Positions 3,201 through 38,479 of a stretch of 64,000 nucleotides of DNA are shown here, one piece after another. Source of the stretch: a virus; the UHGV virus genome UHGV-0277313, one strand, 5' to 3'. Position 1 is the stretch's first letter, and every line of letters begins with the position of its first letter. The notes below the pieces were generated by a model, which ran no database searches, was not told where the DNA came from, and saw only the letters and a list, made by a program, of their open reading frames with translations. A program made the position numbers and the translations under genes.

Positions 3201-5820
3201 TAGCATAATGAACAAAGAATTCGTTTAATGCAAAACCTTCAGCATTTGTTTTCTTAACAGAAGCCCAATTGACACCGTCATTGCACAAAACCTTTTTTAT
3301 CCATTCTTTGTGACTTTCAATCGACAATTTACTTTCATCAATATCATTTTCGATATCCGTTTTAATAAACGAAAATGCAGGAATTGCACGCTCAATTTCA
3401 AGATAACCACGTCTCATATGTGTTTGTTCATCATAATCTGAACGTATACTGTTAATCTTATATTCACGTTCCAACCACTGATAAATTTTCAATGCAGCCT
3501 TATTCTGACGATATTCAGATTCTTTAGGCATACCTGGATATTCTGTTTTCATAGTAATTGCAAAAAGTTGAAACAGATAATAATCTTCATCTATTTTAAC
3601 TTCTGACAAAGCTCCATTTTCAATCAAATAATTAGGTGCTGACACAATCCACTTATAAATGTTCTCTTCTTGATCTTCCCCACCGTGAACTGTATACAAA
3701 CAAAACTTATCAGACAAAGTTAAAGGTTCTTTATCTAAACCTACAGTATCCGAGTTTTTATTTTCATCAACGAAAGTAAAATCACCAAAATAATTATTTG
3801 GTAATTGCCCTTTATTTGTCGCCAGATAGAAACCTTCAAGATCCAAAGTCTTTACATCAAAATCTTTATAATCTTTTGCATTGGCAATATAAACTTTACA
3901 ATTTGCAGGTTCTTTCTTTTCCACTAAATCTTTAAAGTTACAAGAAACATTATTGTTTGTAAATTCCGCTACAACGAATGTGACATTTTCTTTGTTTTCT
4001 AAACCATTAAAATATTCATTACATTTTTCAATATAACTTTTAACATCGTCTGATTTTTTGAATACATAGAAATATGACAAATTATTAATATTGCCAGATT
4101 CAAGAATACCACTTGAGCTATTCTTAACAAAATCAACAGATGTATCATCACAAACAACATAAACAACAGAAAACTTCTGCGCATGCTCATTTGTTGCTAC
4201 AGGAATTTTATACATATTCTCTGTTGATTGTATTCTACCATCATCACCAACTTTAACAGGTTTGTTAAAAATTGATGCATTTGGTATTTGCCTTCTATAC
4301 TGGTATACAGTCTTTGGTTGAGCCAGTGATAAAGTTCTCACCATACTGTATTTCTTATTTTTTAAATTACCAGCTGATAACATTTTTTCATCAAGTTTAA
4401 CGACATCACCGTTTTCATCAACAAAACTAAAAAAGTAAGTCAAGTAAAAAGGTATGTTATCTTCAAACCCAGCAGCACTTTTGGATCGTGATGTCTTTTC
4501 ACCTTGCCCAAACGGATAGTATGTTTTCGCTGCTGAATCAAGCGTTCCAATACCTTTTACATTAAATACTGTTGTTGTATTTAAAATTTTATCGGCATTA
4601 TCTACACCTTTTATAAACGTATCTTTAACAAGATTTCCATAATTGTTAATTTGATCATTTATAAAATCTGTGCGAAGTGTTGGAATTATAACACCAAGAT
4701 CACTTATCTTACCAGCAGATGTTGAACCAATCGATGATTTCGTATCAAAATCTGTTAAGCCAATATCTGCAATCTCGTTTCTTTTAAAAATGTGACCAGA
4801 CTTTGTTTTTATAAATTCAAATTTTGATGTTTCTTTAATATAGTCGTCAATTTTTTCTTCTAATTCTTCATCACTAGGAATTCTGTTTTCATTATCAGAA
4901 TCACCTATCATTAAATCATCAATGTTGCCTTCAGGGATCTGATCTAATTTAACAGTTCCGTCAATGTAATCTTCTACAACAGCTACAGATTCTGAAATGG
5001 AAGATGTTCCTTTTTCATTTCTCACATCAACAATACCTGAATCATTACGATCAGAAGGTTGTTCAATTTGGGCAACATCTTCAATATTTACCAACTCACC
5101 ACGTTCATTACGAACTTCTACTTTTATAACATCAATATTATCTGATGATACAATATCTTTAGTGTTTATTGATTCAACTTCAATGCCAACAAATTTAAAA
5201 AACTCATGACTTTCTTTTGCAGCACGAATTTGTTCTTTTGTCCAATCTGCAAAATCAGCGACCCACCAATCTTTTGGATTGTTATAAAAATATTTGAAAG
5301 ACTTCCAAATTTCTTCTGGAACAACTTTATAAAAATAGTGAAAATCTTCATTGACACCTAAAGTTGGATCAAAGATGTCTCCGTCTTTATCAACAAAGAA
5401 GCCGTGAGGAATTAAATCAATATAAACAGGGGCAAAATCATTTTCGATATCTTTATTGACTTTATCTAAATCATCTTTATGAACAATAAAGCCAACAGCT
5501 AATTGCAAATTTTTTGGTTCATACTTTTTTGCATAATCAATAGTGTTAAGCCAACAACCATGTTTAATTGACAAATAATTAGAAATTGACGTTTGTACAA
5601 CTGAACCAAATTTATGTCCGTTCAAAATAGCAAAATCAAAGAAACCGGGCATTATATTATCTTCAAATTTATTTGCTAATTGAATATCTGATAAACCATC
5701 ATCTTTGAAAGTATCTTTATATTTAAGATACATTTCTTTAAATGTATTGATTACAAAATCTTTTTGTGTTTTATCTTCAGCTTCTTTAGATTCAAAGACT
5801 CTATTCATTTCTTTTGACAT
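274..5820 (-). CDS. giant hypothetical protein (1848 aa), possibly virion-associated
   Basis: Uninterrupted 5.5-kb ORF; only short antisense ORFs overlap it; no catalytic motif recognised. Confidence 0.6.
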   Translation of the reverse strand: MSKEMNRVFESKEAEDKTQKDFVINTFKEMYLKYKDTFKDDGLSDIQLANKFEDNIMPGFFDFAILNGHKFGSVVQTSISNYLSIKHGCWLNTIDYAKKYEPKNLQLAVGFIVHKDDLDKVNKDIENDFAPVYIDLIPHGFFVDKDGDIFDPTLGVNEDFHYFYKVVPEEIWKSFKYFYNNPKDWWVADFADWTKEQIRAAKESHEFFKFVGIEVESINTKDIVSSDNIDVIKVEVRNERGELVNIEDVAQIEQPSDRNDSGIVDVRNEKGTSSISESVAVVEDYIDGTVKLDQIPEGNIDDLMIGDSDNENRIPSDEELEEKIDDYIKETSKFEFIKTKSGHIFKRNEIADIGLTDFDTKSSIGSTSAGKISDLGVIIPTLRTDFINDQINNYGNLVKDTFIKGVDNADKILNTTTVFNVKGIGTLDSAAKTYYPFGQGEKTSRSKSAAGFEDNIPFYLTYFFSFVDENGDVVKLDEKMLSAGNLKNKKYSMVRTLSLAQPKTVYQYRRQIPNASIFNKPVKVGDDGRIQSTENMYKIPVATNEHAQKFSVVYVVCDDTSVDFVKNSSSGILESGNINNLSYFYVFKKSDDVKSYIEKCNEYFNGLENKENVTFVVAEFTNNNVSCNFKDLVEKKEPANCKVYIANAKDYKDFDVKTLDLEGFYLATNKGQLPNNYFGDFTFVDENKNSDTVGLDKEPLTLSDKFCLYTVHGGEDQEENIYKWIVSAPNYLIENGALSEVKIDEDYYLFQLFAITMKTEYPGMPKESEYRQNKAALKIYQWLEREYKINSIRSDYDEQTHMRRGYLEIERAIPAFSFIKTDIENDIDESKLSIESHKEWIKKVLCNDGVNWASVKKTNAEGFALNEFFVHYAIPLNVKLKYYLDRLQIIENAGEKIVTTQGYQGIVVNNGVDIGDTVEFKFLDNFIAKTVSDSVLNNIPEGDSIVRSQLTSVLTSRSEILERIQADVPSVIDKIVDEIDKNKSINPAAKLYVEKTENGSIRFYTKFNGQKVIAKKHVNFINEVFYKETDSGEELVVCSYDDNDNIDFKPVDEFCDDKKVELESIKKSYEQGDHCLYLDIANVVRFGLENGCYVGGFWEKVNGNSIVNNLAPYAFGVMKYNSILNRLNTYFKLPESLLPATADLYDLLILKDKLEDCQEILQEMHEKFKDSRYHLNQKTQDEETGQNEFKTKNINEYVKLYSGHSDESNVNFEQEEKWNRLCQYINFDIYPKIMEDEYKELRELAKSQQRLTQGVKLTVRLKEFATKVADIPFDFTTKSILFSALKYSGSARGVANAFSEIFTDIKNDTESNTFSDMKDVYADYNQLSYEDNKGMIKTSSAFKAAASTRDSVDSFLKQFDKLKDSYNYSFLNTLLYKELSDDEIWQMRDTIAKGFGFDLEKERESFEGSDSNEKFKECFVKAIKQLILNYSGYKTTKIASLYNRISTENYSLRDLSTYYKSRMSDIVGSLDVFTDDLSKLVKNKNSKLGEKLVNDIKIVSGKISGTKEEKINAMKNIIDSSDLLGDKYIWLLAKFDEMTNLYDNYKTIQKKLKEYINDEIKRINPSKKDLEAVDADSEVLKDEGLDEITNMFLKNIYSTWKLSMFDAFKKEQPDNLKKESNPFVFDTNQNSPENINAWVRNFDLIDGQKEIIVNFIEKCKKTDKKEILNVLTSFKKDQIENLINIIMKDDRETFSKSIEYIINVDGLNKTAESQNLYSLSSIHKTDNLSSNSGRATYSDDFVKGLKVNKVETMEFWEQFVKENLDDDKKYQLKLFVNAVLNRVGSQKDLLLNLNVDKIENTLLNYFKANQGKSKEVIKSNANMYSLAVFDNKSEAPKYRIKRLPKKSN

Positions 5821-13538: not shown

Positions 13539-13800
13539 TTAAATCAACTCCATCAACAATGTTTGAAACTCTTTTTTGTTCATTTCGCAAATCATCAATA
13601 TATGTATCTTTTATAGTTAAATACTTACCTAAATCAATTAAACGATCCAGACGAACAATAAAGCTATTAACAAAATCGCTCCCTAAATTTGATGCATCAC
13701 ACAATTCGCGAACAAAACCAATTAATTCTTCACGATCTTGAATAAATCTGACCGCCTGATTTTCATCAAAAACTGTTTTATTTTCTTCAGGTGTACTCAT
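13525..13800 (-). CDS. hypothetical protein
   Basis: 91-aa ORF. Confidence 0.4.
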   Translation of the reverse strand: MSTPEENKTVFDENQAVRFIQDREELIGFVRELCDASNLGSDFVNSFIVRLDRLIDLGKYLTIKDTYIDDLRNEQKRVSNIVDGVDLNALD

Positions 13801-14147
13801 GCTTCGTAATCCAAAATTCCTAATTTAAATTCACGTTCAGTGTCTTCATTATCATACCTAATTTTTACAAAATCAAGTAAATTTTTTATCACAATAAAAT
13901 CTGCACTGAACCACTCACCACTTAAATGGTTAAATTTTAGATAGCGATGCATGATCGACTCCAGAATTTTTGCAGGAGCTTCTTCAATTTCTACACAATA
14001 TTCAAGTGACAATTTCTTTGGGTTACCTGTCTGAAGTTGTCTGACCCTTCTTTTTGGATCCTTTGACAACCCTACTTTAAAAGCTTCACCATTCGAAATC
14101 ACATAAATAAAACTACTCATTTCTAAAATATTTAAATAACATTTCAT
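13797..14147 (-). CDS. T5orf172 / GIY-YIG-superfamily domain protein
   Basis: YVISNGEAFKVGLSKDPKRRVRQLQTGNP matches the T5orf172 (GIY-YIG-like) signature. Confidence 0.5.
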   Translation of the reverse strand: MKCYLNILEMSSFIYVISNGEAFKVGLSKDPKRRVRQLQTGNPKKLSLEYCVEIEEAPAKILESIMHRYLKFNHLSGEWFSADFIVIKNLLDFVKIRYDNEDTEREFKLGILDYEA

Positions 14148-14173: not shown

Positions 14174-17100
14174 TTAGATTTCAATTACTTCCTGTTTCTT
14201 CGAGTCATAAACAAAACTATCTTCAGCTTTAACCTCTTGTGTTTTAGCCTCAATATATGGAAACTCTACAGGAGTTGCATCTAAATATGCATTATTAACA
14301 GCACCTACGCAATTGTGTACAAACACATTACAATCCAATGCAAAATTATGAATTGAATTTAATACAATATCATATACAGGTTTTGTATTTTCAATTTTTG
14401 TAATCTGTGTAACATACACATGTAAATTTTCAACTTTAGATTTCTGTTCTGCTAATTTATCACCTAAATCGTGTTTTAGCAAATATCGTCTATATCCTTC
14501 TGGATTTACTTGCTTCATTAACGCTAACCCTTCGTTAATGATTTTTGTTCTAGCCCGTTTCATAACAGTACGATCATGAAAAGCTTTAATTTCACGACCA
14601 GTCATTGCATGTAAATTTGTATGTTCAATATTTGTTAAAGGGACCAAATTTTCAGGTCTATCATCATTTTTATTATGTGACTTGTGATGAATAACTGTAA
14701 ATTTACTACCATCAATTACAGCACGTTTTTTTGCTTCTGCAATAGCGTTTGACAATAAGTCTTGAGAAACAATTTTATATAAAAATTTCGGCGTTCCTTT
14801 AAATGGATTAACAACTTTTCTATATCTATCATGATAGTTTAATTCATGATAATAATTAAAAGGCATTAACTCATCATACAGAGCAATATCTTCTGCCTGT
14901 TTATATTCACCGCTTTTCATTAGAATTAAATGATCATCAGTACATGCAAAGGTTTTTCCGTTGCTTAAAGTAAACTGCAACAAAGTTTCAGGAATATGTT
15001 TTTCTAACACACGTTCAATCTTAACAGGCTTTAACTGTTTTGATTCACAATCACATGCTAAAACCCATTCATGCTCAATATCAGAATTGTATAACTCTTC
15101 TATTGTTAAAACTTTTCCAGACAATAAAAAGATTTTTGTATCGTAAGCCAAACAACTATCAGCCATATCTTTTTTGTGCGTTGTTACTAGTTTTTTATCT
15201 GCAACACCAATATAACCTAATTGTTCACGCAAATATGGGCAATCACCAACTTTAATACGTCCTGTAATCATCCACTGTGCAAAATTTAAATATGCCGTAA
15301 TATCACGATCTACTGATTGATAACGTACGTTCTCAAATTCATGATGCTGCTGTAATGATTGTCTTACATATTCAGAATTGTGAACGAACACACCAGCCGA
15401 TAATGCGAAATTTGGAGCTTTATCTATACTAATATCATACACATCTTCATATTCGTCTAGAAATTCAATATATTTGACTTTATGATTAATTCTATGCTTT
15501 TTGAACCACTCTTCACGATATTTAGTCTTTTCTTTGTTGATAGTTTCTAACGAAACAGTTTTTTTATAATTTTTTCCAAACAATTTTATTAAATGACCTC
15601 TAGAGCCAGGATATCTCACTTTCATTTTCGCAACATATTCTGGATTTTCCCATTTTAATAAATTTGCTTTTGTTATATTCTGTAATGCAATATCTGATGT
15701 TTTACTACCTAATCTCGGTTTTCTTGTTTTATTTAAAATTTTAATTCTTTCAGATTGCTCTTTAGCTCTTTTGCAATCATCTTTTTTAAACGATTTTTTT
15801 GTACAATCAATCATCTCTTGTTTATATTTTTTTGCAACTAATTTCCCAGATTCACTTTGACACTTCCTTGCATATGCTGATTTATTTTTATCTGCATAAA
15901 ATTTTTCTTTTATTTTCTTGCATTTGATAGATCTCTTCTTTCTGGCTTCTTCTGTTTGAGATTTTTCTACAACCCTATTCCAAACAGTTGGATCTAATCT
16001 TAATAATTCTTGAAAATGCTCAACATGCACTTTCAAATGTTCATCTTTTGTTAACAATACTAAATTGTTTGGATTATTATTTAATTTATTAAAATCTTTA
16101 TGGTGTATGTGAAAGCCTTTAGTTGACCCATATAAACTATTTGCTATTTTTCCATAAGTTAACCCCCAACTATTTGTTAAAGGGTTTAATACATTTTCAT
16201 AACCTTTATCAGAATATTTCCTATATAAAGGCATCAATGAATCACCACAATTTAAATATTGTGCCTGAATAAAATCACCATTCCTTAACATAAAACGATG
16301 ATCTAATGTGCATCTTATTTCTTCATCATTATCTAACACAACTTTCATAATGCGTTTTTTGCCATTATTTTTAGCATTAATAATTCGTCCAGGAACAACT
16401 TTTTTTGTTTTCAGGTCTAACGTATATGTAAACAACTCCTCGCCACTATTGAATCTTTCTAAAATATCTTTAAAAGAAACTTCCTCACCATTTAATAATG
16501 ATACTTTTGTATCACCTGTGAAACATTGAAACTGATCATACGAAATTGTCTTAATATACACACCTGCTTTATCACGCAAATCCAATGATAATTGTTTAAT
16601 AGCATCATGATCAATTCGGTTTGGCGCTGAAATCCATGATACAAAATCAGCCACAAAAACAGTTTGATGTTCTCCTAAATCATTAACAACATACTCTTTA
16701 TGCCATAACGAATATCCTGCTTGTGACGTTGACTGTGAAGCTAGATCAACGTGAACGAACCTCGGTGCATTTGGATACCTTGCTAAACGTGGTCCTAAAG
16801 TTGTTTCTTGAAATAATTCTTTTGGCAACTTATCAAGTAAAGGTATCTGATCACCTAAAGGCGCTTCTAAATGAACCTCTGGTAATAATTGTTTACAATC
16901 ACCGATACGTGACAAATCGTCAAAAGGTCTATCAGATGTATCTGTCGTTCTACCAGCAATGTTTTGAATAGCCGCTTCAATATTATTTTCAAACTCACGT
17001 CTATACTCAATAGGAACTTCTAATAATTCACAACCTGCAGGTGGTACATAATTTAGTTTTTCTAAAGGTACATCATTATATTCTTCAGGCAACACTTTTG

Positions 17101-17521
17101 ACGGGTGTGTTTTAGTACCAATATAAATCCAAAAATGTTTACCTGATAATCCTAAAGCATCACCCTTAACTTCCCAAATAGCTGGATCTAACAATAATGT
17201 TTCTGGATCGTCAGGTTTGATTTTATGTATATATTCCCAAACCATTCCTGATTTTGATTTAGATGATGAAATCAACGCACAATAAATTAATGATGAATTT
17301 AAAAAACGTGATCTAATACGTTCGCGTAAACCTGTATAAAGTTTAAACGCTTCAGATGAATCCTTCTCTTCAGCTTCGTCAAAAATTGAGTTACATGTTA
17401 CAACTCCAGACGATAATAGATAATTGTGCAAATCATTATTTACTTCTAAATTATATACTTTTACAGGTTGTTCAAGTTTTTTAGTTTTTATGGAATTAAT
17501 CTTCATAAGTAAAACTTTCAT
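14174..17521 (-). CDS. terL: terminase large subunit, C-terminal precursor fragment: split-intein C-half (Int-C) + Walker B + nuclease domain, interrupted by two HNH-type inteins
   Basis: Starts with DnaE-Int-C-like 44 aa (VYNLEVNNDLHNYLLSSGVVTCN then S); extein SIFDEAEE (Walker B) continues the upstream fragment's ...IGYSVFG, aligning with T4 gp17 RGNSFAMIYIDECAF; RFVHVDLASQ nuclease motif; two full inteins with TxxH and HNF...HN blocks. Confidence 0.8.
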   Translation of the reverse strand: MKVLLMKINSIKTKKLEQPVKVYNLEVNNDLHNYLLSSGVVTCNSIFDEAEEKDSSEAFKLYTGLRERIRSRFLNSSLIYCALISSSKSKSGMVWEYIHKIKPDDPETLLLDPAIWEVKGDALGLSGKHFWIYIGTKTHPSKVLPEEYNDVPLEKLNYVPPAGCELLEVPIEYRREFENNIEAAIQNIAGRTTDTSDRPFDDLSRIGDCKQLLPEVHLEAPLGDQIPLLDKLPKELFQETTLGPRLARYPNAPRFVHVDLASQSTSQAGYSLWHKEYVVNDLGEHQTVFVADFVSWISAPNRIDHDAIKQLSLDLRDKAGVYIKTISYDQFQCFTGDTKVSLLNGEEVSFKDILERFNSGEELFTYTLDLKTKKVVPGRIINAKNNGKKRIMKVVLDNDEEIRCTLDHRFMLRNGDFIQAQYLNCGDSLMPLYRKYSDKGYENVLNPLTNSWGLTYGKIANSLYGSTKGFHIHHKDFNKLNNNPNNLVLLTKDEHLKVHVEHFQELLRLDPTVWNRVVEKSQTEEARKKRSIKCKKIKEKFYADKNKSAYARKCQSESGKLVAKKYKQEMIDCTKKSFKKDDCKRAKEQSERIKILNKTRKPRLGSKTSDIALQNITKANLLKWENPEYVAKMKVRYPGSRGHLIKLFGKNYKKTVSLETINKEKTKYREEWFKKHRINHKVKYIEFLDEYEDVYDISIDKAPNFALSAGVFVHNSEYVRQSLQQHHEFENVRYQSVDRDITAYLNFAQWMITGRIKVGDCPYLREQLGYIGVADKKLVTTHKKDMADSCLAYDTKIFLLSGKVLTIEELYNSDIEHEWVLACDCESKQLKPVKIERVLEKHIPETLLQFTLSNGKTFACTDDHLILMKSGEYKQAEDIALYDELMPFNYYHELNYHDRYRKVVNPFKGTPKFLYKIVSQDLLSNAIAEAKKRAVIDGSKFTVIHHKSHNKNDDRPENLVPLTNIEHTNLHAMTGREIKAFHDRTVMKRARTKIINEGLALMKQVNPEGYRRYLLKHDLGDKLAEQKSKVENLHVYVTQITKIENTKPVYDIVLNSIHNFALDCNVFVHNCVGAVNNAYLDATPVEFPYIEAKTQEVKAEDSFVYDSKKQEVIEI
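14312..15154 (-). mobile_element. intein 5 of terminase (281 aa, HNH-type endonuclease domain)
   Basis: CLAYDTKIF...TDDH...VIHHKSHNKNDDRPENL...HNFALDCNVFVHN followed by +1 Cys. Confidence 0.75.
15377..16525 (-). mobile_element. intein 4 of terminase (383 aa, HNH-type endonuclease domain)
   Basis: CFTGDTKV...CTLDHRF...HIHHKDFNKLNNNPNNL...NFALSAGVFVHN followed by +1 Ser. Confidence 0.75.
17390..17521 (-). mobile_element. split-intein C-terminal half (Int-C, 44 aa) of terminase intein 3
   Basis: MKVLLMKINSIKTKKLEQPVKVYNLEVNNDLHNYLLSSGVVTCN closely resembles Npu DnaE Int-C (MIKIATRKYLGKQNVYDIGVERDHNFALKNGFIASN). Confidence 0.75.
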
Positions 17522-18458
17522 TGAAAATCAAATTAATTGTACTAACAAACTTAGATACTGAACCAAATTTTTTAATTAAACTATCCCACAAAGGCAAAGA
17601 TCTTTTGTTTTTATCCGAAAGATTTCTTGCTTTCTGATATGACAACTTGTTGACAACATTACCTTCAATTAATTTAACAACATTATAATATCTAGCTAAC
17701 GTAGCTAACTCTTGTTTTTCTCTTGCTCTTTCTGGATACAATTTATTAAACTCTTGCGTATTTTTTGAATGCAATTTTCGTGTAGAATCTGTAATTACCC
17801 TGTTTTTATTTGAATTAACAACTACATCGTGATGCCTTTGTGATGAATTAAATTTTCTCATCAATTCTCTTCCATGTTCTATACAATGCATCTTTCCTTC
17901 CTCTGAACGTAAATACTGTTTCATTCTTTTTGATGCACTTTCTCTACCCTCTATACTTTTGCTATAAGGTATTAAAACTTTTTTAACACGTTCTGCTCTT
18001 CTTTTTATAAACTCTTTATCGTTATTAATCTTGTTTAAATTATTTCTTGCACAAGATTTCATATATTCTGAAGACATCAGATCTTTCATTCTATTTCTAG
18101 CCCTATTCTTTGCTTCGACAGTTCTAGAATATTCAACAAGATGTTTTGCAGTATTTAGCAATTTTGCTGAATCACTTGATAAACCTTTCCCACCTTCAAC
18201 TAAATTATAACATTTATCATCATTTACAGTGTTACTATTAACAAGTACGCGTTCAAAGTTAAATGCATCTTTCTCTGAATCAAAAAAACGTAAAATTTTT
18301 AATTGAAAATTTTCTTTTCCATATTTTTTTATGGCTTTTTTTATTAAAACGCCAGAACCTAAATACCTATCATTAAGGTTATTTGTTGCATGTTTTCCAT
18401 AATAAAATTTACCGTTTATTAAATTAGTTATTTTATAAACAAAAATAAATTTACTCAT
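17496..18458 (-). CDS. free-standing GIY-YIG homing endonuclease located between the two halves of the terminase split intein
   Basis: N-terminus FIFVYKITNLINGKFYYGKH...NDRYLGSG is a canonical GIY-YIG motif; first ATG is 2 nt after upstream stop (track start 18470 is GTG); 3' end overlaps Int-C ORF start by 26 nt. Confidence 0.8.
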   Translation of the reverse strand: MSKFIFVYKITNLINGKFYYGKHATNNLNDRYLGSGVLIKKAIKKYGKENFQLKILRFFDSEKDAFNFERVLVNSNTVNDDKCYNLVEGGKGLSSDSAKLLNTAKHLVEYSRTVEAKNRARNRMKDLMSSEYMKSCARNNLNKINNDKEFIKRRAERVKKVLIPYSKSIEGRESASKRMKQYLRSEEGKMHCIEHGRELMRKFNSSQRHHDVVVNSNKNRVITDSTRKLHSKNTQEFNKLYPERAREKQELATLARYYNVVKLIEGNVVNKLSYQKARNLSDKNKRSLPLWDSLIKKFGSVSKFVSTINLIFNESFTYED

Positions 18459-18459
18459 A

Positions 18460-21213
18460 TTACATAACACCTAACAATTCGTCTTGATCAGTTAAATCTT
18501 TTGCATGCTTGCACCATTGATTATTATACATTATTAAAGTTTTATCAATTCCTATCTTTGGGTTTTTTATAGGGAATTTATGATCTGGCGTGCATCTTAT
18601 GCTCTGTCCGTTTTCCAACTCTATTTCAACTAACTCATTTACTTCTTTAGTACATTCACAATTATTAATATTATTCCAAGTAAACGTCCCATCAAGTTCT
18701 CTAGTTTTTACTTTATATTGATTACAACTTTTTGCAATATCTTCTATTCTTATATTTCCACTATCTGTTACAACTTCTGTATCACCTGTTAAACAACCAA
18801 AGACACTGTAACCAATAATGTGATTAATATTTGAACCTACCGACAAGTATACATTGTTTGGAAACCTAATGCCATTGCCTTGACGACAGAATGGAACCGG
18901 ATCATTTGGCCCAAACGAATCGAAAGCCGTCATTTTACGAACTTCATGAAAACATGGCGAATTACGAATCATTTCCAATACAGGCTTTAATGCAGTATCC
19001 TGCGCTTGCTGCAATGTAACAGAAATCATCAATGCAGATAAAACAGTATCAGGTGCAATATTGAATAATTTATGAGGCGATCTTAAACAACATATACGAT
19101 AAAGTGCATAAATTAAACCTCTACGCGCAATAGTTGATTTTCCTGAATTGTGTAAAATAATTAAATTTCCTGAATCCGTTACTACAGCAAAATTGTGATA
19201 AACAGGGACTTCTATATCATAGACCGCACATTTTTTATCAAGATCCTGCACATTTTTAACAGTAACACTACCATTATTTGCACACAATATATCATTCTTT
19301 TTTAAATCTTTCGCTTCAACATAATGACCTGAACTCAATAGAAATCTATGATCGCTCGTACATTCTAACGTTGTTCCGTCAGATAAACTAACACTTAATA
19401 CCTTTCTATTCTTTCCAGTACAACGCGCATTAAAAGCTTTTGCTTTTACAAATACATTATTTTTAATGTCATACGATAAAACATTAAATTCATTATCTTC
19501 ACCTAAACTTGCTAAATTTTCAATGGACACTAGTTTGTTATCAGACAATATTTTTGTATCACCAGACAAACAACCAATACTTCCACGAAAAACACAATTA
19601 GAAGCATATACCCCACTGTTAATTGCAAAATTATGATTGCCACGAATACAAACGTTGAAAGTGGATTCGCTTTTTTCTAACAATTTTATACTAACAATTT
19701 TATGATTATATTTGATTTCAACTTTTGTGTTAATATCAAACTTATTGCACCAGGCCTTTAAAGTCTTTACTTTAATACAAGCATTACTTGCACATTCCTC
19801 TATAGTATAACCACAACTTAATATATACCTAACTTCTTCTTCAGTCACCTTTTTTAATAAATCTTTATGATTGATATTATAAAGTTTTAACTTATTGATG
19901 ATATAACATCTGGAACAATTTAATTTCCTTTCAACTTCTCTTAATGAAAAACTATTTTTTAAAGTTTCAATAAAACGCTCCTTTGATATATCTAACCTTG
20001 CTGAAGGATTATTTTTTAAGTTTTTTTCTCTTTGTTTTATTCTTAAATTTTCTTTTAATAATGCACCTTTTTCGCTATTCCAAAAAGCAACAGAAATTTT
20101 GGAAGCATAATTATCTTGCAAATTCCTCAATGACATACGTTTTGAAGCCAACTTATGTTGTTGTTCGTCTGCCCACCTGTTTGCTGAACCTTTTTTTAGT
20201 CTATTTTTTACAGAATCAACAACTTCTTTGACACCATTCTTATAAGCTTCGTTATACAATTTTAATTGTTTTCTTGCGAATTTTGTATGATAATCTAGAT
20301 GTGTCTTACTATCTAAATAAATTAAATTAGTTGGATTGTTATTGTATTTGTTACCATCTTTATGGTGTATGACTTCATAACGTACCCTTTCACCTCTATT
20401 CTTTACAGGTGCTTTATATTTTCTGCCATATTTCCACAATGCACTTAAACGATGTGTGTATTCTGAACTTGCAACAGAAATTTTTGAAGGTATGATTACT
20501 TTTTCATATGATTTCACACCTCTTGCAGTTTTGTCTTCAACAAACCTCTCAAAAGGCATTAATGAATCACCGACTTTTAAATCCTTTGTCAATACCCACT
20601 TATTATTTCTATTCAAAAATTTATGATTTTCAGTACACTTAAAAACTTTTCCATTATCTAAAGTTATTTCATAAACTCTCTTTTCACCACTATATTGAAT
20701 ACCTTCTATTTCACCGGGTTCGACAGAATGTTTTTGTTCGTTCCACGTGTATACATAACAACCTTCATAACCAAATAAACATAAATCTGCTACAGTTTTT
20801 ACAGAACCATCCATTAATGGAATTTCTACATCACCAGTAACACATTCAAAATATTGATTAGATGGATCAAATATTTTTGCTAAAATCTGTCGCCAATAAG
20901 GATAAATAATGGCATACGAATTGCCCATATATGCATCATCTTTCAAGAATTCTTGAATAGTTGGCATATGTTTTTTATAAAGCAAAACATCAAGCTGATT
21001 TAAAAACTGTTCCTGCCCTGTATAATACAAATAGAAACCCATTCTTTTTTCAAAATCAGGCAACTGTTCTAAACGTGAACCACGGGGAATTTGTTCTGAA
21101 TAAAACGAATAAATATCATTAAATTCTTTTGAATGTATCAAGTTAATAATGTTATCTTGATCTTCAACTGAATATACAGGAATTTGATAATTATTGTGTA
21201 AAATCTCAACCAT
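18460..21213 (-). CDS. terL: terminase large subunit, N-terminal precursor fragment: ATPase Walker A region interrupted by two inteins, ending in split-intein N-half (Int-N)
   Basis: Exteins YFE / CVFRGSIG / SGKSTIARRG...IIGYSVFG give P-loop GSIGSGKST and an ATPase domain aligning with T4 gp17; three Hint N-terminal blocks (CVTGDVEIP, CLSGDTKIL, CLTGDTEVV) with TxxH blocks. Confidence 0.8.
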   Translation of the reverse strand: MVEILHNNYQIPVYSVEDQDNIINLIHSKEFNDIYSFYSEQIPRGSRLEQLPDFEKRMGFYLYYTGQEQFLNQLDVLLYKKHMPTIQEFLKDDAYMGNSYAIIYPYWRQILAKIFDPSNQYFECVTGDVEIPLMDGSVKTVADLCLFGYEGCYVYTWNEQKHSVEPGEIEGIQYSGEKRVYEITLDNGKVFKCTENHKFLNRNNKWVLTKDLKVGDSLMPFERFVEDKTARGVKSYEKVIIPSKISVASSEYTHRLSALWKYGRKYKAPVKNRGERVRYEVIHHKDGNKYNNNPTNLIYLDSKTHLDYHTKFARKQLKLYNEAYKNGVKEVVDSVKNRLKKGSANRWADEQQHKLASKRMSLRNLQDNYASKISVAFWNSEKGALLKENLRIKQREKNLKNNPSARLDISKERFIETLKNSFSLREVERKLNCSRCYIINKLKLYNINHKDLLKKVTEEEVRYILSCGYTIEECASNACIKVKTLKAWCNKFDINTKVEIKYNHKIVSIKLLEKSESTFNVCIRGNHNFAINSGVYASNCVFRGSIGCLSGDTKILSDNKLVSIENLASLGEDNEFNVLSYDIKNNVFVKAKAFNARCTGKNRKVLSVSLSDGTTLECTSDHRFLLSSGHYVEAKDLKKNDILCANNGSVTVKNVQDLDKKCAVYDIEVPVYHNFAVVTDSGNLIILHNSGKSTIARRGLIYALYRICCLRSPHKLFNIAPDTVLSALMISVTLQQAQDTALKPVLEMIRNSPCFHEVRKMTAFDSFGPNDPVPFCRQGNGIRFPNNVYLSVGSNINHIIGYSVFGCLTGDTEVVTDSGNIRIEDIAKSCNQYKVKTRELDGTFTWNNINNCECTKEVNELVEIELENGQSIRCTPDHKFPIKNPKIGIDKTLIMYNNQWCKHAKDLTDQDELLGVM
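18463..18795 (-). mobile_element. split-intein N-terminal half (Int-N, 111 aa) of terminase intein 3
   Basis: CLTGDTEVV...IRCTPDHKF... ends at ORF stop without C-terminal HN block; complementary Int-C begins the next terL fragment. Confidence 0.75.
19147..19572 (-). mobile_element. intein 2 of terminase (142-aa mini-intein, no endonuclease domain)
   Basis: CLSGDTKIL...LECTSDHRF...VYHNFAVVTDSGNLIILHN then +1 Ser of SGKST. Confidence 0.75.
19597..20844 (-). mobile_element. intein 1 of terminase (416 aa, HNH-type endonuclease domain)
   Basis: CVTGDVEIP...FKCTENHKF...VIHHKDGNKYNNNPTNL...GNHNFAINSGVYASN then +1 Cys; codon positions checked against sequence. Confidence 0.75.
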
Positions 21214-33573: not shown

Positions 33574-34536
33574 TTAAGATTGCGTTATTTTATTGAAACT
33601 CTTGAAGTATAATTTTAAGAAATGTCTGTACTCAATTCTCTTTTTATACCTATCAGAATACGAATCAGGCTTCATATTATCAGGATCTTCGTCGCCATTT
33701 AATTTAATTATTGTAACTGTTCCATTATAAAATTTTCTTAAGGTTTTGTAATTATTTATAATTTCAGCTCGTGAAACATCCCCGTCGAAACTAAACGAAA
33801 TTTCCGTTGGGTTTTTCGACGCGATAATTCTTGCTTGCGAATCAGCTAATACTTTACCAAAAATAGATACTGCAGTCACATCTTCAGGTGTATTACGGTT
33901 AGCTGCAATACCCGAAAAAACACCTTCAGTAATAATTACTTTACCATTTGTTGATACATTCTGAATATTCCAAACAGCAAATGATTTGTGACTTCCTTGA
34001 GGATTGATATATTTTGCTTCAGGGTTTTCTGATACATAATCACGTGCAACTAAATAAACAACGTTATTATTCAAATCAAACGTCGGAACAATAATCCTTC
34101 CCCGATATCTTCCTTGCCCAATACGGATATCGTATTTTTTAATTTCTTCAAACGTTATATTTCTTGAACGCAGATACTCAACTGCATTAACAAATGAACG
34201 ATCTATTTTTACTGAAATATTGTCCAAATCAATCAATTCAGCTTGAATTAACAGACCACTCGGTGATGTATATTTTATACGCTGTTTAGTATCAATGTTG
34301 TCTAGTTTATATCTTAATAATGCACCACCATTTACATAACCTTGTAATAGCTGATCTACTCTTCCAGACCACCCACATCGATAACAATGAAATACGTTTT
34401 TTTCAAGTGATAAACTTAATTTATAATCATCATAACGTTTACCTAACATTTTACAATTTGGACAATGTGTCACATATTGATCGACATTCGATGTTAAGCT
34501 TACATCTCTCAAACTTTCAACGCGTACATCACACAT
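33574..34536 (-). CDS. DNA primase (gp61-like: zinc ribbon + TOPRIM)
   Basis: CPNCK...HCYRCGWSG zinc ribbon; TOPRIM-like IITEGVFSGIAANR...FSFDGD; directly downstream of DnaB-like helicase as in T4 41-61. Confidence 0.65.
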   Translation of the reverse strand: MCDVRVESLRDVSLTSNVDQYVTHCPNCKMLGKRYDDYKLSLSLEKNVFHCYRCGWSGRVDQLLQGYVNGGALLRYKLDNIDTKQRIKYTSPSGLLIQAELIDLDNISVKIDRSFVNAVEYLRSRNITFEEIKKYDIRIGQGRYRGRIIVPTFDLNNNVVYLVARDYVSENPEAKYINPQGSHKSFAVWNIQNVSTNGKVIITEGVFSGIAANRNTPEDVTAVSIFGKVLADSQARIIASKNPTEISFSFDGDVSRAEIINNYKTLRKFYNGTVTIIKLNGDEDPDNMKPDSYSDRYKKRIEYRHFLKLYFKSFNKITQS

Positions 34537-35408
34537 TATTTAACACCATTAGCAGCTTTTTTCATTTCCTTAACGTCATACGGCTCACATTCTTTCACTT
34601 GATTAGCCGCTTTATCAAAGTTTACATACACAGTTGTATTTGTTTTACCACGACGGGCTTTAGCAACATATAATCTCATTTTACCATTGTCAGACTCTTC
34701 ACGAGTTTGGTTTAATGTAACAATGCCATATGCCACATGCGCTTTTCTTGATGAATCAGCTAACATGTCTTGCGATGCCACTTCATTGTCTTCAGTGTTC
34801 CATGCAGCCTTTCCTAACTGTGAACCTGTAACAACAGGACAATTAAATTGGTCAGCTAACGCCTTCAAGTCATAAAAAATTGTACCCATTTCTTCATATG
34901 TACTTTCAGATGACCGTCGCGTTTGTTTGTTCGGTAACATTAAATCTGCATAGTCTACAATAATTAAACCAGGTTCAAAATTTTCCAAAGAATGTAACTT
35001 CGTCAAATATGTTCTCAAATGATTAGCAGATACTGTTTTATTAGAATAATAAATAGTCCTTACATTAGGTGCCCAATATTTAATTTTCTGCACACGCTGT
35101 TTGTATTTTTCAATTTGTGATTCATCCAATAAATCTCTCATTGACATACCAGTTGAACAGGAAATGATATTTGATAACACTTCCTTTTCAGACCACTCAA
35201 ACGAAAAATACACAACCGGGCGTCTCTGAAACATTGCCTGATATGCCAAAAAGCTCAAGAACTTACTTTTTCCACGACCAGGCGCTCCGCAGTTTTTACT
35301 GTAAAAACAATGACTTAGCTCGAAGTTGTGATACTTATTATTCACCGTCAAATTGTAAACAGGCACCTTTTCATCAAGGTGAATGCGTTTTTTATTTACT
35401 AATTTCAT
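34536..35408 (-). CDS. gp41/DnaB-like replicative helicase, C-terminal fragment (split-intein Int-C + RecA-like ATPase domain)
   Basis: MKLVNKKRIHLDEKVPVYNLTVNNKYHNFELSHCFYSKN (Int-C) then CGAPGRGKSKF (Walker A) and DnaB-like ATPase fold; ATG at 35408 with AAGGAAG RBS (track start 35411 is TTG). Confidence 0.8.
   Translation of the reverse strand: MKLVNKKRIHLDEKVPVYNLTVNNKYHNFELSHCFYSKNCGAPGRGKSKFLSFLAYQAMFQRRPVVYFSFEWSEKEVLSNIISCSTGMSMRDLLDESQIEKYKQRVQKIKYWAPNVRTIYYSNKTVSANHLRTYLTKLHSLENFEPGLIIVDYADLMLPNKQTRRSSESTYEEMGTIFYDLKALADQFNCPVVTGSQLGKAAWNTEDNEVASQDMLADSSRKAHVAYGIVTLNQTREESDNGKMRLYVAKARRGKTNTTVYVNFDKAANQVKECEPYDVKEMKKAANGVK
35292..35408 (-). mobile_element. split-intein C-half (Int-C, 39 aa) of helicase
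   Basis: DnaE-Int-C-like sequence ending ...HCFYSKN followed by +1 Cys. Confidence 0.75.
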
Positions 35409-35518
35409 CAATTACTTCCTTACTTAAACCCAACTTCAGAACATAATCCAAATCGTTTTTGTATAAAAACTTCAGTGATGTTATCACAAAATCAGACAGT
35501 TCGTCAACCTTTAATGTT

Positions 35519-36475
35519 TTAAAATTCATCATCTTCCGACAAATCTTCCGCTTTTTTATATGCAACACCTTCTGACCATATAACTTTTTCATCACCTTTT
35601 TTTGGATTTGTAATTCTAAATTTATGATCAGGTGTACATTTAATTGTATACCCATTATCAAAAGTTAATTCGATCAATTCGTCTGTATCTCTAGTTTTCC
35701 ATACATTATAAATATCAGTTTCGAAAGAGTTTCCATTCTCATCAACTGAATAGGCTTTTTTATCTTTAAAGTTGTTTACCAAATCTTTGATTTCGATGAA
35801 ACCTTTATTTGTTTTCACTTTTGTATCACCTGTTAAACAGAATACATACAGTTCACCTTTTGCAATGCCGCCACCAAAAGCGTCATCTAATGAAGGAATG
35901 CCTGTTGTGAACATATTATCTTTGCCATAACTGTCACGTAACATTTGAGGTAATTCATCAAGTGAACTAACCAAATCTAACCCAAGATTTGTTCCTGCAC
36001 CAACAGACAATGCATCATCGATAATAGATACGGCTTTTTCGTAATCATTTGTTTTATCATACATATCGACCAATTTACCAATTGCATCACGCATTGCAAC
36101 GCTTTTAGCAAAATCTAAAGCTTGATCTTTTATGTACTGTGCGTCTTCAATAACAGTTGTTGTTAAGCTACGAATCACTGAAGCAAAATTTTCTTGTTCG
36201 ACAATAGGAATTGCATATTTACTCGTATAATTATTCAATTCAGTCAACAAAACAGATTCAGTCGGTTTTGTATGATACTGTTCGTAATATGAAATAATCC
36301 ACTGACAAATATTTTGCAAATAGACATTATCAAAAAAAGAAGGTTTAATTAATTCCACGCCAACTGTTGATAAATAGGTGAAATCTTGAAATAATAATGC
36401 AACAATCTTTTTCTGCATTTCAACTTCAAAATTATATGTTGTATCCTGTACAACTTCTTCGTTTTCATTGTCCAT
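35519..36475 (-). CDS. gp41/DnaB-like replicative helicase, N-terminal fragment (DnaB N-domain + split-intein Int-N)
   Basis: DnaB N-terminal-like domain; ...GGGIAKGELYVF then CLTGDTKVKT...IKCTPDHKF... to stop. Confidence 0.8.
   Translation of the reverse strand: MDNENEEVVQDTTYNFEVEMQKKIVALLFQDFTYLSTVGVELIKPSFFDNVYLQNICQWIISYYEQYHTKPTESVLLTELNNYTSKYAIPIVEQENFASVIRSLTTTVIEDAQYIKDQALDFAKSVAMRDAIGKLVDMYDKTNDYEKAVSIIDDALSVGAGTNLGLDLVSSLDELPQMLRDSYGKDNMFTTGIPSLDDAFGGGIAKGELYVFCLTGDTKVKTNKGFIEIKDLVNNFKDKKAYSVDENGNSFETDIYNVWKTRDTDELIELTFDNGYTIKCTPDHKFRITNPKKGDEKVIWSEGVAYKKAEDLSEDDEF
35522..35839 (-). mobile_element. split-intein N-half (Int-N, 106 aa) of helicase
   Basis: CLTGDTKVKTNKGFIEIKDL...TIKCTPDHKFRI...; Cys codon position verified (aca at 35837-35839 on + strand). 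Confidence 0.75.
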
Positions 36476-36514: not shown

Positions 36515-38479
36515 TCAACCTATTCTCGATTCACCCATTTTTTTAATCAACATTTTAAATTGTTCTTCATTTATTTCTGGAATTCCTTCGTTTTCTAGAT
36601 GTTGTTTCCTTTCTCTAGTCCAAGACTCAAGATATGGATGTCCTTTGTCATTAAAATCTACAAACACTGAACAGTTCAATCCTTTATCTTTTCTTCTGGT
36701 TACGCGGCCGATTCTTTGAACATGTGAAATAATATTTTTTCCAGCATCCATCAAGATACCAACATCAAATTCAGGAACATCAATACCTTCATTAAAAACA
36801 ACGTTTCCAACAATTACACGATATCCTTCTTCACGAATTGCCTTTTTAATTGTTTCAGCATTTCCCTTGCGTTCGACAACAACATGTTGAACAATACCTT
36901 TTTTTGTTTTTTCAGTCGCGTCAATAGCTTCATAAATCGTATTACCACCACACATAAATAAAGCTTTAATTCCTTTATCCTTCATTTCACGTACTATTGC
37001 TTTTCCATGTTCAATACGATTAACCATAACCAAAATTTTTAAATTATTCTTGTAACAAAATTCAATACAACGATATGCTGCTTCATTCCTATTAAAACTT
37101 TCTGCAACATATTTCTTATATACATCTGTGCAAGATTTACAAAACACAAATGATTTTGGTGCATAATTAATATAATATGAATAAACTAAAGACGAATATC
37201 CTTTATCACGAAGATACTTTGATGAAATATAATAAAACGAATTACCAAACAACGCTTTTAAAACAATATCATCAACACATTGCCCACCTTCTTTAAAAGG
37301 CGATGCTGTAAACCCAATTAAATATTCAGGATTCGCAACCATTGCGGGTATTGCAATGCTCTGACAGCTGCCGTGATGACATTCATCAACTATAATAGCT
37401 CTTACACTTTTCAGATATCTCATAATTTTTGGATCGTTACGTTTCACCATATTCCAAACTAAATTATTAGTTGAAACAATAATATCTGAATTATCCAAAA
37501 CAGGGTTTCTGTTAAGATATTCAATTTTACGGTCAATACCACGAAGTTTAGCACGACCTTCAATTTGATTTAAAATATTTGTTCGATTATTAATAACTAA
37601 AATTTTCCCATCAATTAATTTAAACAAAGATGCAATGATTTCAGTTTTACCAGAATTATGTACAATCACACCGTTGCTTAATGCAAAATTATGCAAATCA
37701 CAATCAACCTCAATATCATATACAGGAATAGGGTCTACATAATGTTCAGCAAATACTTGCTCAACAACACGACTCCCATAAACACCAGCTACAGGTGATT
37801 CAGCTAAAAGATTGATAGCTTCTACATATTTTCCATTACTTAAAAGGAAAAGATGATCGGGCGTGCATTCAACTTTAACACCATCATTAAATTTAATCTT
37901 CAATGTATCTTTAACATATTTTGACAAATGTGCCGAAACAATTGAATGAAACTTTCCATCTGAACAAAAAACAGACTTTCCATTAAAATTCATACTTAAT
38001 GAACTTAAAGTTTCAAAACCAGTATTTGTTAAAATTAAAGTATCGCCAACAAAACAACCTGTCGCAGCTTCACAGATACCATGTTTATTAATCAAACATT
38101 TTAAAGTACCAATCAATTGATGTTCACGTACTTCAAAACCAGGTGAAGCTAGTGCCATTTCATTATACGCTTGCCTAACCTTTTGCATTGTTGACTTTAC
38201 ATCAATATCAATTACTTTACGCTGATCGATTACAGTTTCAAAATGAAAATACGGTAAAATCAAATCATCAACACAACCTGATTGTACATATAAAGAAGTT
38301 TTTGTATTTTCAACTTCCATATACAATGTAATCAAACTCTGCCCATCAGCTGACAGTAATGTCAAACGTTTTTTTATACGGTTAATAAAATCAGCATCTT
38401 CATCTGAAATTAAAGACCACATCGATTTCGTAATCGTTAACATTTTATTTCTCTCAATTAGACTGTGTTTGAAAAACAA
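36515..38479 (-). CDS. SF2 (DEAD/DEAH-like) DNA helicase with a mini-intein inside the Walker A motif
   Basis: Extein ...KHGICEAATG / SGKTEIIASL (AxxGSGKT); DECHH motif II; helicase C-terminal motifs (TASPFKEGG, HRIGRVTRR). Confidence 0.7.
   Translation of the reverse strand: MFFKHSLIERNKMLTITKSMWSLISDEDADFINRIKKRLTLLSADGQSLITLYMEVENTKTSLYVQSGCVDDLILPYFHFETVIDQRKVIDIDVKSTMQKVRQAYNEMALASPGFEVREHQLIGTLKCLINKHGICEAATGCFVGDTLILTNTGFETLSSLSMNFNGKSVFCSDGKFHSIVSAHLSKYVKDTLKIKFNDGVKVECTPDHLFLLSNGKYVEAINLLAESPVAGVYGSRVVEQVFAEHYVDPIPVYDIEVDCDLHNFALSNGVIVHNSGKTEIIASLFKLIDGKILVINNRTNILNQIEGRAKLRGIDRKIEYLNRNPVLDNSDIIVSTNNLVWNMVKRNDPKIMRYLKSVRAIIVDECHHGSCQSIAIPAMVANPEYLIGFTASPFKEGGQCVDDIVLKALFGNSFYYISSKYLRDKGYSSLVYSYYINYAPKSFVFCKSCTDVYKKYVAESFNRNEAAYRCIEFCYKNNLKILVMVNRIEHGKAIVREMKDKGIKALFMCGGNTIYEAIDATEKTKKGIVQHVVVERKGNAETIKKAIREEGYRVIVGNVVFNEGIDVPEFDVGILMDAGKNIISHVQRIGRVTRRKDKGLNCSVFVDFNDKGHPYLESWTRERKQHLENEGIPEINEEQFKMLIKKMGESRIG
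37655..38056 (-). mobile_element. mini-intein (134 aa) in SF2 helicase P-loop
   Basis: CFVGDTLIL...VECTPDHLF...VYDIEVDCDLHNFALSNGVIVHN then +1 Ser. Confidence 0.75.

Follow-up and report, generated by a model that had tools for sequence, protein, structure and literature searches.

A DnaB-type helicase gene split by a DnaE-like intein in a gut phage, and sister alleles that point to the loss of an endonuclease gene by deletion

Introduction

How does a phage helicase gene come to lie in two pieces, each carrying half of an intein, with no endonuclease gene between them? The question is raised by a stretch of 64,000 nucleotides (nt) of the virus genome UHGV-0277313 (referred to here in its entirety as the window), in which a DnaB/gp41-type helicase is encoded by two adjacent genes at 34536..36475. 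In 2009, fragmentary ocean reads covering different genes prompted the proposal of a pathway in which an intein is invaded by a free-standing endonuclease gene, the endonuclease is then lost, and the split intein that results is stable (PMC2677866). The first-pass annotation of the window had suggested that the helicase is a later stage of this fractured-gene pathway, from which the endonuclease is gone. Sister alleles from related gut phages now show this directly; the reading that we favor, with a probability of about 0.88, is that of a trans-spliced split-intein helicase derived through intein gain, endonuclease invasion, and an 821-nt deletion.

The split helicase and its intein

All window features described here are on the minus strand. 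The N-fragment gene (35519..36475; TAA at 35519..35521) encodes 318 residues by the list of open reading frames (ORFs) and its translation, namely the helicase's N-terminal portion followed by the N-terminal intein half (Int-N). The N-extein (35840..36475, 212 residues) aligns to the N-terminal 212 residues of the intein-free homologues P0003-P0013 and ends in GELYVF (GGGIAKGELYVF), the strand into Walker A. Int-N (35522..35839, 106 residues) reads CLTGDTKVKT...SEDDEF before the stop codon, with Cys1, a block B TPDH, and an acidic tail, AEDLSEDDEF. A gap of 110 nt from stop codon to ATG (35409..35518) separates it from the C-fragment gene (34536..35408), likewise in the ORF list, whose 290 residues comprise the C-terminal intein half (Int-C) and the ATPase part of the helicase (Pfam DnaB_C, E = 1.1e-22). 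Int-C (35292..35408, 39 residues, MKLVNKKRIHLDEKVPVYNLTVNNKYHNFELSHCFYSKN) has a basic N terminus, MKLVNKKRIH, a block F of VYNLTVNNKYHNF, and a terminal Asn through which it aligns to Npu DnaE Int-C, while the C-extein (34539..35291, 251 residues, the part matched by Pfam DnaB_C) opens with the +1 Cys and Walker A (CGAPGRGKS). The C-fragment starts at the ATG at 35408, with a TTG 3 nt further upstream, and its AAGGAAG ribosome-binding site (35415..35421) lies 6 nt before the ATG. The ORF list of the window contains no frame of endonuclease size between the two halves. The coordinates, peptide strings, gap length, AAGGAAG site, and lack of an endonuclease gene were all correctly reported in the first-pass annotation, which did not mention a 46-codon ORF (MMNFKTLKVDELSDFVITSLKFLYKNDLDYVLKLGLSKEVIDEISK, 35392..35532) that overlaps the N-fragment end and the first 17 nt of the C-fragment, hereafter the relic.

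Both profile and structure searches identify the interrupting sequence as an intein. The N-fragment matches Pfam Intein_splicing (PF14890) with an E value of 2.3e-8, and the fused intein halves score 37.3 bits against a gathering score of 35.8 (E = 3e-9). Among solved structures, DnaE split inteins match the fused intein along its whole length (7qil, E = 6.5e-9 over residues 2-143; Npu DnaE 4kl5, E = 2.6e-7), and NrdJ-1 matches far more weakly. The likeness to DnaE, which had been noted for Int-C, thus holds in structure matches and alignments for the whole intein. Cys1 (Cys213 of the N-fragment, CLTGDT) is invariant across split and contiguous alleles, as are the Asn and the +1 Cys of the C-terminal junction (...FYSKN|CGAPG). 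The block B TPDH of Int-N aligns to TKDH in Npu DnaE, and its Thr is replaced by Ala (ADH) in L102 alone. By these residues (Cys1, TPDH, terminal Asn, and +1 Cys), the intein is class 1-like. The break lies within a few alignment columns of the Npu DnaE split point, the canonical B/N4-F/C2 position, and the halves have net charges of -6 (Int-N) and +4 (Int-C), the acidic-basic polarity described for DnaE-type split inteins (PMC2677866).

The exteins, once joined, form a continuous DnaB-family ATPase core around Walker A. The joined sequence scores 95.8 bits against the DnaB_C profile over positions 3-252, whereas the C-fragment alone scores 81.1 bits from position 26. Uninterrupted helicases from cultured phages align to it without a break (the closest, from Pseudomonas phage QdP_Psa3, at 35.6%), and so do 11 intein-free metagenomic homologues (57-78% identity), which read ...GELFVF-[A/C]GAPGRGKS with no gap at the junction. 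The intein had been placed at the P-loop; more exactly, it sits at the N-terminal edge of Walker A (VF|CGAPGRGKS), away from the P-loop Ser that marks the canonical DnaB-b site. A second copy of the helicase is absent from the 64-kb window. The halves are probably reassembled into the phage helicase by protein trans-splicing, which would yield a protein of 463 residues from the 212-residue N-extein and the 251-residue C-extein.

Sister alleles of the insertion site

Related gut phages share the gene order of the region (superfamily 2 [SF2] helicase, DnaB-type helicase, primase-like gene, and sigma-like gene), and their helicase genes show four states of the one site. The site is intein-free in P0003-P0013, holds a contiguous mini-intein in L001 and L002, is fractured with an endonuclease gene between the halves in L099, L101, and L102, and is split with that gene deleted in the window and L085-L098.

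The first-pass annotation had proposed looking for a contiguous intein at this site in related phages, and two exist. P0001 of L002 (603 residues) is 76% identical to the fused query and P0002 of L001 (598 residues) is 63% identical, and both share the window's insertion site. P0002 reads ...SDEF-SL-MKLVNKK..., so that the contiguous join coincides with the break in the window (...DEF-SL-MKLVNKK). At the DNA level, the join region of L001 and L002 reads ...GATGAATTT|TCCTTAATGAAG..., and alignment with the window reveals a clean 107-nt insertion between GATGAATTT and TTGATGAAA. These contiguous sisters carry no trace of a nuclease domain. Together with the intein-domain (HINT) statistics, the intact catalytic residues, and the purifying selection described below, the contiguous sisters joined at the window's break bear out the original claim of a naturally split intein in a DnaB/gp41-type helicase.

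Exteins can be nearly identical between intein-free and intein-bearing alleles (P0005 with P0001 and P0011 with P0002). In addition, contiguous and fractured forms occur in both of two intein sublineages, one pairing P0001 with L102 and the other pairing P0002 with the window and L099, a pattern that fits repeated invasion by a mobile endonuclease gene, as judged from the sequences. Intein-free P0003-P0013 have either Cys or Ala at the +1 position (VF-C/A-GAPGRGKS). An Ala-bearing allele, being unable to support splicing, may perhaps be refractory to productive intein gain.

Several other candidates were set aside. The 346-residue N-fragment variant P0014 (L003/L004), considered as a second split allele, proved to be a chimeric contig: past the intein sequence NPNKNDTT, GC content rises from ~30% to >50% (52%), and the opposite strand carries a gyrase/ParC-like fragment. 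L013 and L038, which had appeared to hold only the C-extein, are ordinary intein-free helicases. P0051 (L100), taken at first for a half-deleted endonuclease, is a 97-residue call that needs TAG as a sense codon, on a mosaic contig. The 5.5 kb of L100 hold unrelated genes, the last ~200 nt of the endonuclease gene, Int-C, ~90 helicase codons, and unrelated sequence, and represent either a mosaic assembly or a rearranged genome. A scan of IMG/VR with the helicase alignment yielded only relatives of 36% identity or less.

Origin of the gap

What, then, is the sequence between the two halves? A profile of the relic peptide, searched against 1.84 billion proteins, matches the C terminus (residues 266-308) of P0052, a 308-residue protein, and the last 41 residues of the relic ORF correspond to that C terminus. 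The P0052 gene directly follows a 318-residue N-fragment in L099, where the N-fragment differs from that of the window at 8 of 957 nt. P0055 (73% identity) occupies the equivalent place in L101, a complete locus of N-fragment, endonuclease, and C-fragment, as does P0056 (46% identity) in L102. The inserted endonuclease genes of L099, L101, and L102 encode 308-352 residues.

The comparison with L099 is the most informative. In L099, the 11-nt sequence AACATTAAAGG occurs twice, at 3980, directly after the N-fragment stop codon, and at 4801, within the endonuclease gene; in the window, a single copy survives at the deletion junction (35508..35518). The two loci are colinear, with 68/68 identities up to the first repeat and 236/246 (96%) from the second, the window lacking exactly the 821 nt between them. 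The latter stretch spans from just before the N-fragment stop codon across the entire gap and Int-C. On this alignment, the window reads as L099 minus the 821 nt between the AACATTAAAGG copies, the signature of a deletion between short direct repeats, and the gap itself is what remains of the lost endonuclease gene, namely its last ~41 codons, rather than neutral filler. The placement of the window at a later, endonuclease-free stage of the fractured-gene pathway is thereby directly borne out, with L099, L101, and L102 as the sisters that retain the gene. Compared as DNA with the window and related loci, the spacer gave only chance matches of up to 14 nt, and it shows no similarity to the flanks of the terL endonuclease.

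The alignment also suggests why a tail was left behind. The AAGGAAG of the C-fragment falls within the endonuclease codons S-K-E, a position at which the L099 tail is identical and L101 reads AAGGAGG. The tail would be retained because the translation signals of the C-fragment lie in the last codons of the endonuclease gene, such that only deletions keeping the tail survive.

The lost endonuclease gene

Pfam gives no direct match to P0052, P0055, or P0056, yet several indirect lines of evidence suggest what the lost gene encoded. An alignment of the P0052 family displays an invariant YVY-x11-YVG together with R43, E100, and N120, in the order typical of GIY-YIG nucleases. A homologue, P0057 (E = 2e-4 for a database size of 5.8 billion), matches Pfam LEM-3_GIY-YIG (1.8e-10) and NUMOD3 (2.6e-11), and a tblastn search matches a Rhizobium phage protein annotated as GIY-YIG. 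The N-domain of the AlphaFold model (predicted local distance difference test [pLDDT] score of 80-88) has the PD-T4-3 restriction endonuclease as its top fold match (probability 1.0, E = 0.01). By this transitive and partly visual route, we regard the lost product as a GIY-YIG-like homing endonuclease. Its start codon lies downstream of the N-fragment stop codon in L099 and L101; in L102, the gene overlaps the N-fragment in another frame.

Age of the split and selection on its parts

Several observations show that the split is real. At least 24 contigs carry the identical 318-residue N-fragment; they derive from many samples, human Hadza gut and pig gut among them, and from independent assemblers, and one of them, a 276,920-bp scaffold, matches the window at every one of the 4,940 bases compared. 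Seven haplotypes of the spacer were recovered, all equal in length and without indels. The L092 haplotype is 16-17% diverged in nucleotides across exteins and Int-N, with stop codon, gap, and start codon unchanged. Between the window and L092, the ratio of nonsynonymous to synonymous polymorphism (pN/pS) is 0.107 for Int-N, 0.059 for Int-C, 0.131 for the N-extein, and 0.052 for the C-extein; purifying selection thus acts on both intein halves and constrains them no less than it does the helicase itself. The phage is uncultured, and a megablast search with 3 kb of the locus against 50,697 phage records found no match.

Among near-identical haplotypes (L085-L097, the equivalent of 35290..35520), differences cluster in the relic and Int-C, at 4-9% in most, with flanks at 0-2.6%. 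Such clustering resembles a recombination or co-conversion tract around a former endonuclease cleavage site.

Favored history and points against it

Taken together, these comparisons of extant alleles show the following history. The gene was intein-free at the outset (state 0) and then gained a DnaE-like mini-intein, contiguous and placed ahead of the Cys that leads into Walker A (state I). A free-standing GIY-YIG-like homing endonuclease gene next entered the intein linker (state II), its insert supplying the stop codon of the N-half and, in its own 3' codons, the ribosome-binding site of the C-half. Deletion of 821 nt between the AACATTAAAGG copies then removed the nuclease body and kept the 3' tail, giving the arrangement in the window (state III). 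In the present phage, two adjacent genes would each be translated from its own ribosome-binding site, the acidic 106-residue Int-N and the basic 39-residue Int-C would associate, and class 1 protein trans-splicing via Cys1, TPDH, the terminal Asn, and the +1 Cys would join ...GELYVF to CGAPGRGKS..., completing the Walker A loop; the predicted tryptic junction peptide is ...GELYVFCGAPGR. The relic presumably interrupts the site targeted by the endonuclease, so that the allele is probably endonuclease-free and also resistant to re-invasion.

A number of points weigh against this account or narrow it. The upstream 11-nt repeat is present in L099 and not in the more distant L101, so the repeat-mediated mechanism applies to the lineage of the window only. 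The diverged L092 lineage, for which P0054 is the endonuclease-bearing counterpart, lost its endonuclease gene either in the same event as the window or independently. The penultimate intein residue is Lys rather than His, although DnaE inteins likewise have no His there. Pfam does not directly recognize the endonuclease, and its assignment to GIY-YIG is transitive and made partly by eye. The genome is at least 277 kb long and the window covers 64 kb of it, and an intact second helicase elsewhere in that genome is conceivable. Lastly, we infer the target site and specificity of the endonuclease, the immunity of the relic allele, and trans-splicing itself from sequence comparison.

Alternative explanations

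Because contiguous alleles of the same intein exist and the window has no near match among cultured phages, the split could in principle be an error of assembly or sequencing or mark a pseudogene that died recently, that is, a contiguous gene with a spurious or inactivating insertion. We consider this practically negligible in light of the identical N-fragment shared by at least 24 independently sampled and assembled contigs, the seven indel-free spacer haplotypes with an architecture unchanged at 16% divergence, the pN/pS values of 0.05-0.13 in all four coding parts, and the homology of the inserted bases to the tail of a real gene. If the locus is genuine, ribosomes might still bypass the 110-nt gap, in the style of T4 gene 60, or cross it by recoding, giving a single precursor that is then spliced in cis, a formal alternative raised by Dassa et al. 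(PMC2677866) that would suit adjacent halves on the same strand. However, the insert of 107 nt is not a multiple of 3, and the N frame meets TAA and then TGA within 18 nt. The gap RNA folds no better than shuffled sequence (z = +0.59), with no Rfam match, translation of the C-fragment can start from a strong ribosome-binding site and ATG of its own, and sister alleles carry a 950- to 1,080-nt insert that bypassing could not cross, all of which renders this route extremely improbable. Somewhat more credible, but still very unlikely, is a non-covalent two-subunit helicase held together by unspliced intein halves, given that phage genes fractured by an endonuclease and lacking an intein can yield active two-piece enzymes (Aeh1 NrdA, PMC2677866). 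Here, the break falls directly before Walker A, where an unspliced 145-residue HINT domain would occupy the ATP site; moreover, the splicing residues are invariant in every split allele examined save for the block B Thr-to-Ala change in L102, and the intein halves are selected as strongly as the exteins. Between these last two in plausibility, and highly improbable in its own right, stands an origin of the split by nonsense decay of an in-frame endonuclease domain in a full-size intein, a textbook route cited for some split inteins (bioRxiv 10.1101/2025.01.02.630785). It is contradicted by an endonuclease gene that begins at its own start codon after the N-fragment stop (L099 and L101) or overlaps in another frame (L102), and by contiguous sisters that are mini-inteins with no remnant of a nuclease.

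A separate issue is whether the relic is itself a gene, whose product would be an endonuclease-blocking DNA-binding tail or whose translation would serve as a coupling device. Variants of the relic exist (P0044-P0050), its frame is open in 7/7 haplotypes, 12 of 20 substitutions are synonymous in that frame (null mean, 6.8; P ~ 0.01), and codon position 2 accounts for only 1 of 19 variable sites. AlphaFold models it as three helices with a pLDDT of 86, and several pipelines call it as a gene. We nevertheless judge a functional small gene unlikely. The synonymous bias counts for less as a sign of a functional mini-gene because the same codons are also selected as the C terminus of the full endonuclease, and relic tails track different endonuclease variants, that of the window matching P0052 and that of L092 matching P0054 (...LSQEVIDEISK). 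Counted by hand, changes in the window clade relative to the L099 tail come to ~6 synonymous and ~6 nonsynonymous, including a Leu-to-Pro change, which is near the neutral expectation. In addition, GGAAG adjoins the relic ATG, making the Shine-Dalgarno spacing unusable. The peptide has no match in Pfam, in PHROGs, or by tblastn against phages, nor by BLASTP to the terL endonuclease, and a fold search of the model against the PDB and BFVD returned nothing below E = 2. The simplest reading of the sequences is a relic whose apparent constraint would be inherited from the intact endonuclease. The three-helix C-terminal tail of the nuclease probably belongs to its DNA-binding region, and a still more doubtful idea, slightly less likely than function of the small gene in general, is that this tail as made from the relic protects against endonuclease re-invasion or that relic translation couples both helicase halves. 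Were the relic active in such a way, a fragment of a selfish gene would have been domesticated, locking in the split intein permanently. Also within the relic is a promoter-like site, TTGACG-18-TAACAT with an upstream TG (35478..35507), identified as a consensus match only (9/12). Its hexamers are kept in L092, but this conservation is not independent evidence because the same stretch is coding in the endonuclease-bearing alleles.

Relation to known split inteins

The closest precedents are the fractured genes of phages. The fractured-gene model and gp41-7, an endonuclease-less gp41 locus, were published in 2009, with endonuclease loss as step III (Dassa et al., PMC2677866). As at the gp41-7 locus, a split intein here divides a phage gp41/DnaB-type helicase between two neighboring genes on one strand; as in the fractured genes of Dassa et al., sisters hold a free-standing endonuclease gene between the halves, one form lacks it (step III), and the control elements of the C-half arrive with the endonuclease cassette. 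The differences are equally clear. Whereas gp41-1 to gp41-7 interrupt the helicase at residue 356 (P-SSM2 gp41), the insertion in the window precedes Walker A, and whereas the Dassa loci are marine or freshwater, the intein described here is of another lineage and comes from a gut environment. The published description of gp41-7 went no further than a missing gene and a hairpin left in place; the window's site provides intein-free, contiguous, fractured, and endonuclease-deleted states as well as the deletion junction.

Comparison with gp41-1 to gp41-8, an alignment to which had been put forward as a check, finds that the intein is not an allele of that group, as judged from junction, insertion point, and 24-29% identity. 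It resembles gp41-1 and gp41-8 in being a split intein of a phage helicase with a canonical split position and halves of similar size (Int-N of ~88-106 residues and Int-C of ~37-45 residues). Identity is 24% to gp41-1 (E = 0.03) and 29% to gp41-8, the latter over the N-half only (E = 5e-5). The junctions of gp41-1 (SGY|SSS) and gp41-8 (LNR|SAY) have a +1 Ser, in contrast to YVF|CGA and a +1 Cys in the window. Charge is likewise reversed, being positive in the N-half and negative in the C-half of gp41-1 and gp41-8 (PMC2677866) and negative and then positive in the window, as in DnaE.

With Npu and Ssp DnaE, the intein shares the +1 Cys, HNF in block F, the lack of a penultimate His, an acidic Int-N and a basic Int-C, and a near-identical split point. 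It differs in sequence (27-31% identity), in its host protein, a helicase rather than the DNA polymerase III alpha subunit, and in having its halves adjacent instead of at distant loci, so that step IV of Dassa et al. is not reached. DnaB-b inteins such as Mycobacterium smegmatis DnaBi1 also interrupt the ATP-binding loop of a DnaB-family helicase. At the DnaB-b site, the +1 residue is by definition the P-loop Ser/Thr of GK[ST] (PMC6195587, PMC4760082), and in DnaBi1, a contiguous class 3 intein, this is the Mg-coordinating Ser of GKS (PMC6195587). By contrast, the +1 Cys of the window lies 8 residues upstream of the P-loop Ser, and the intein is split and class 1-like, with Cys1. Its nearest relatives are, in order, the terminase split intein of the same phage (40%, E = 2e-33), the mini-intein of the neighboring SF2 helicase (E = 2e-17), and Npu DnaE (27%, E = 6e-14).

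An endonuclease-less fractured gp41 locus is already known, and the value of the present case lies in the complete, sequence-resolved series including the deletion scar. The four states of the pathway are now seen at one site in one gut-phage family, on contigs of up to 277 kb, and the scar of the loss step is visible as the 821-nt deletion between 11-nt repeats. The fractured-gene model becomes directly testable with real sequence pairs, as to whether the endonuclease cuts the contiguous allele, whether the relic allele resists it, and whether translation of the C-fragment needs the tail. A practical gain is a new DnaE-like split intein that has a +1 Cys and shares the phage with its terminase paralogue, itself split.

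Other inteins and neighboring genes

That paralogue lies in the large terminase gene (14174..21213), which holds five inteins: an HNH-containing intein (19597..20844), a mini-intein at Walker A (19144..19572), the split intein (Int-N, 18463..18795; Int-C, 17390..17521), and two more HNH-containing inteins (15377..16525 and 14312..15154). A GIY-YIG endonuclease ORF (17496..18470) overlaps both halves of the split intein. Like the helicase intein (35292..35839), the terminase split intein (17390..18795) is acidic in its N-half and basic in its C-half, and the geometry of its endonuclease ORF matches that of the relic; unlike the helicase intein, it retains the endonuclease gene (Pfam GIY-YIG, E = 3.4e-5) and has a +1 Ser. 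The terminase endonuclease and the one lost from the helicase share a weak local match (E = 0.006 over 66 residues). The terminase and helicase split inteins, each the other's closest relative, must avoid cross-splicing in one cell; cross-reaction is presumably absent, and the two represent a candidate natural orthogonal pair.

Just upstream of the split helicase, a contiguous mini-intein (37655..38056) lies in an SF2 (ResIII/DEAD) helicase ORF (36515..38479), ahead of its SGKT P-loop. In relatives, this gene is either intein-free, at 504-510 residues (L001 and L101), or encodes 808-959 residues (L085, L087, and L090), a length range that suggests further intein polymorphism. The primase-like gene comes immediately downstream of the C-fragment in the window, L086, L087, and L092, and after a 315-nt gap in L090 and L091; in L085, L088, and L089, an ORF of >453 residues with a faint SSO2105_N match follows after a 140-nt gap. 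Finally, a 116-residue ORF adjoining the terminase gene (13797..14147, ...FIYVISNGEAFKVGLSKDPKRRVRQLQTGNP...) looks by eye like a small GIY-YIG/T5orf172-type protein and may be another free-standing nuclease-like gene.

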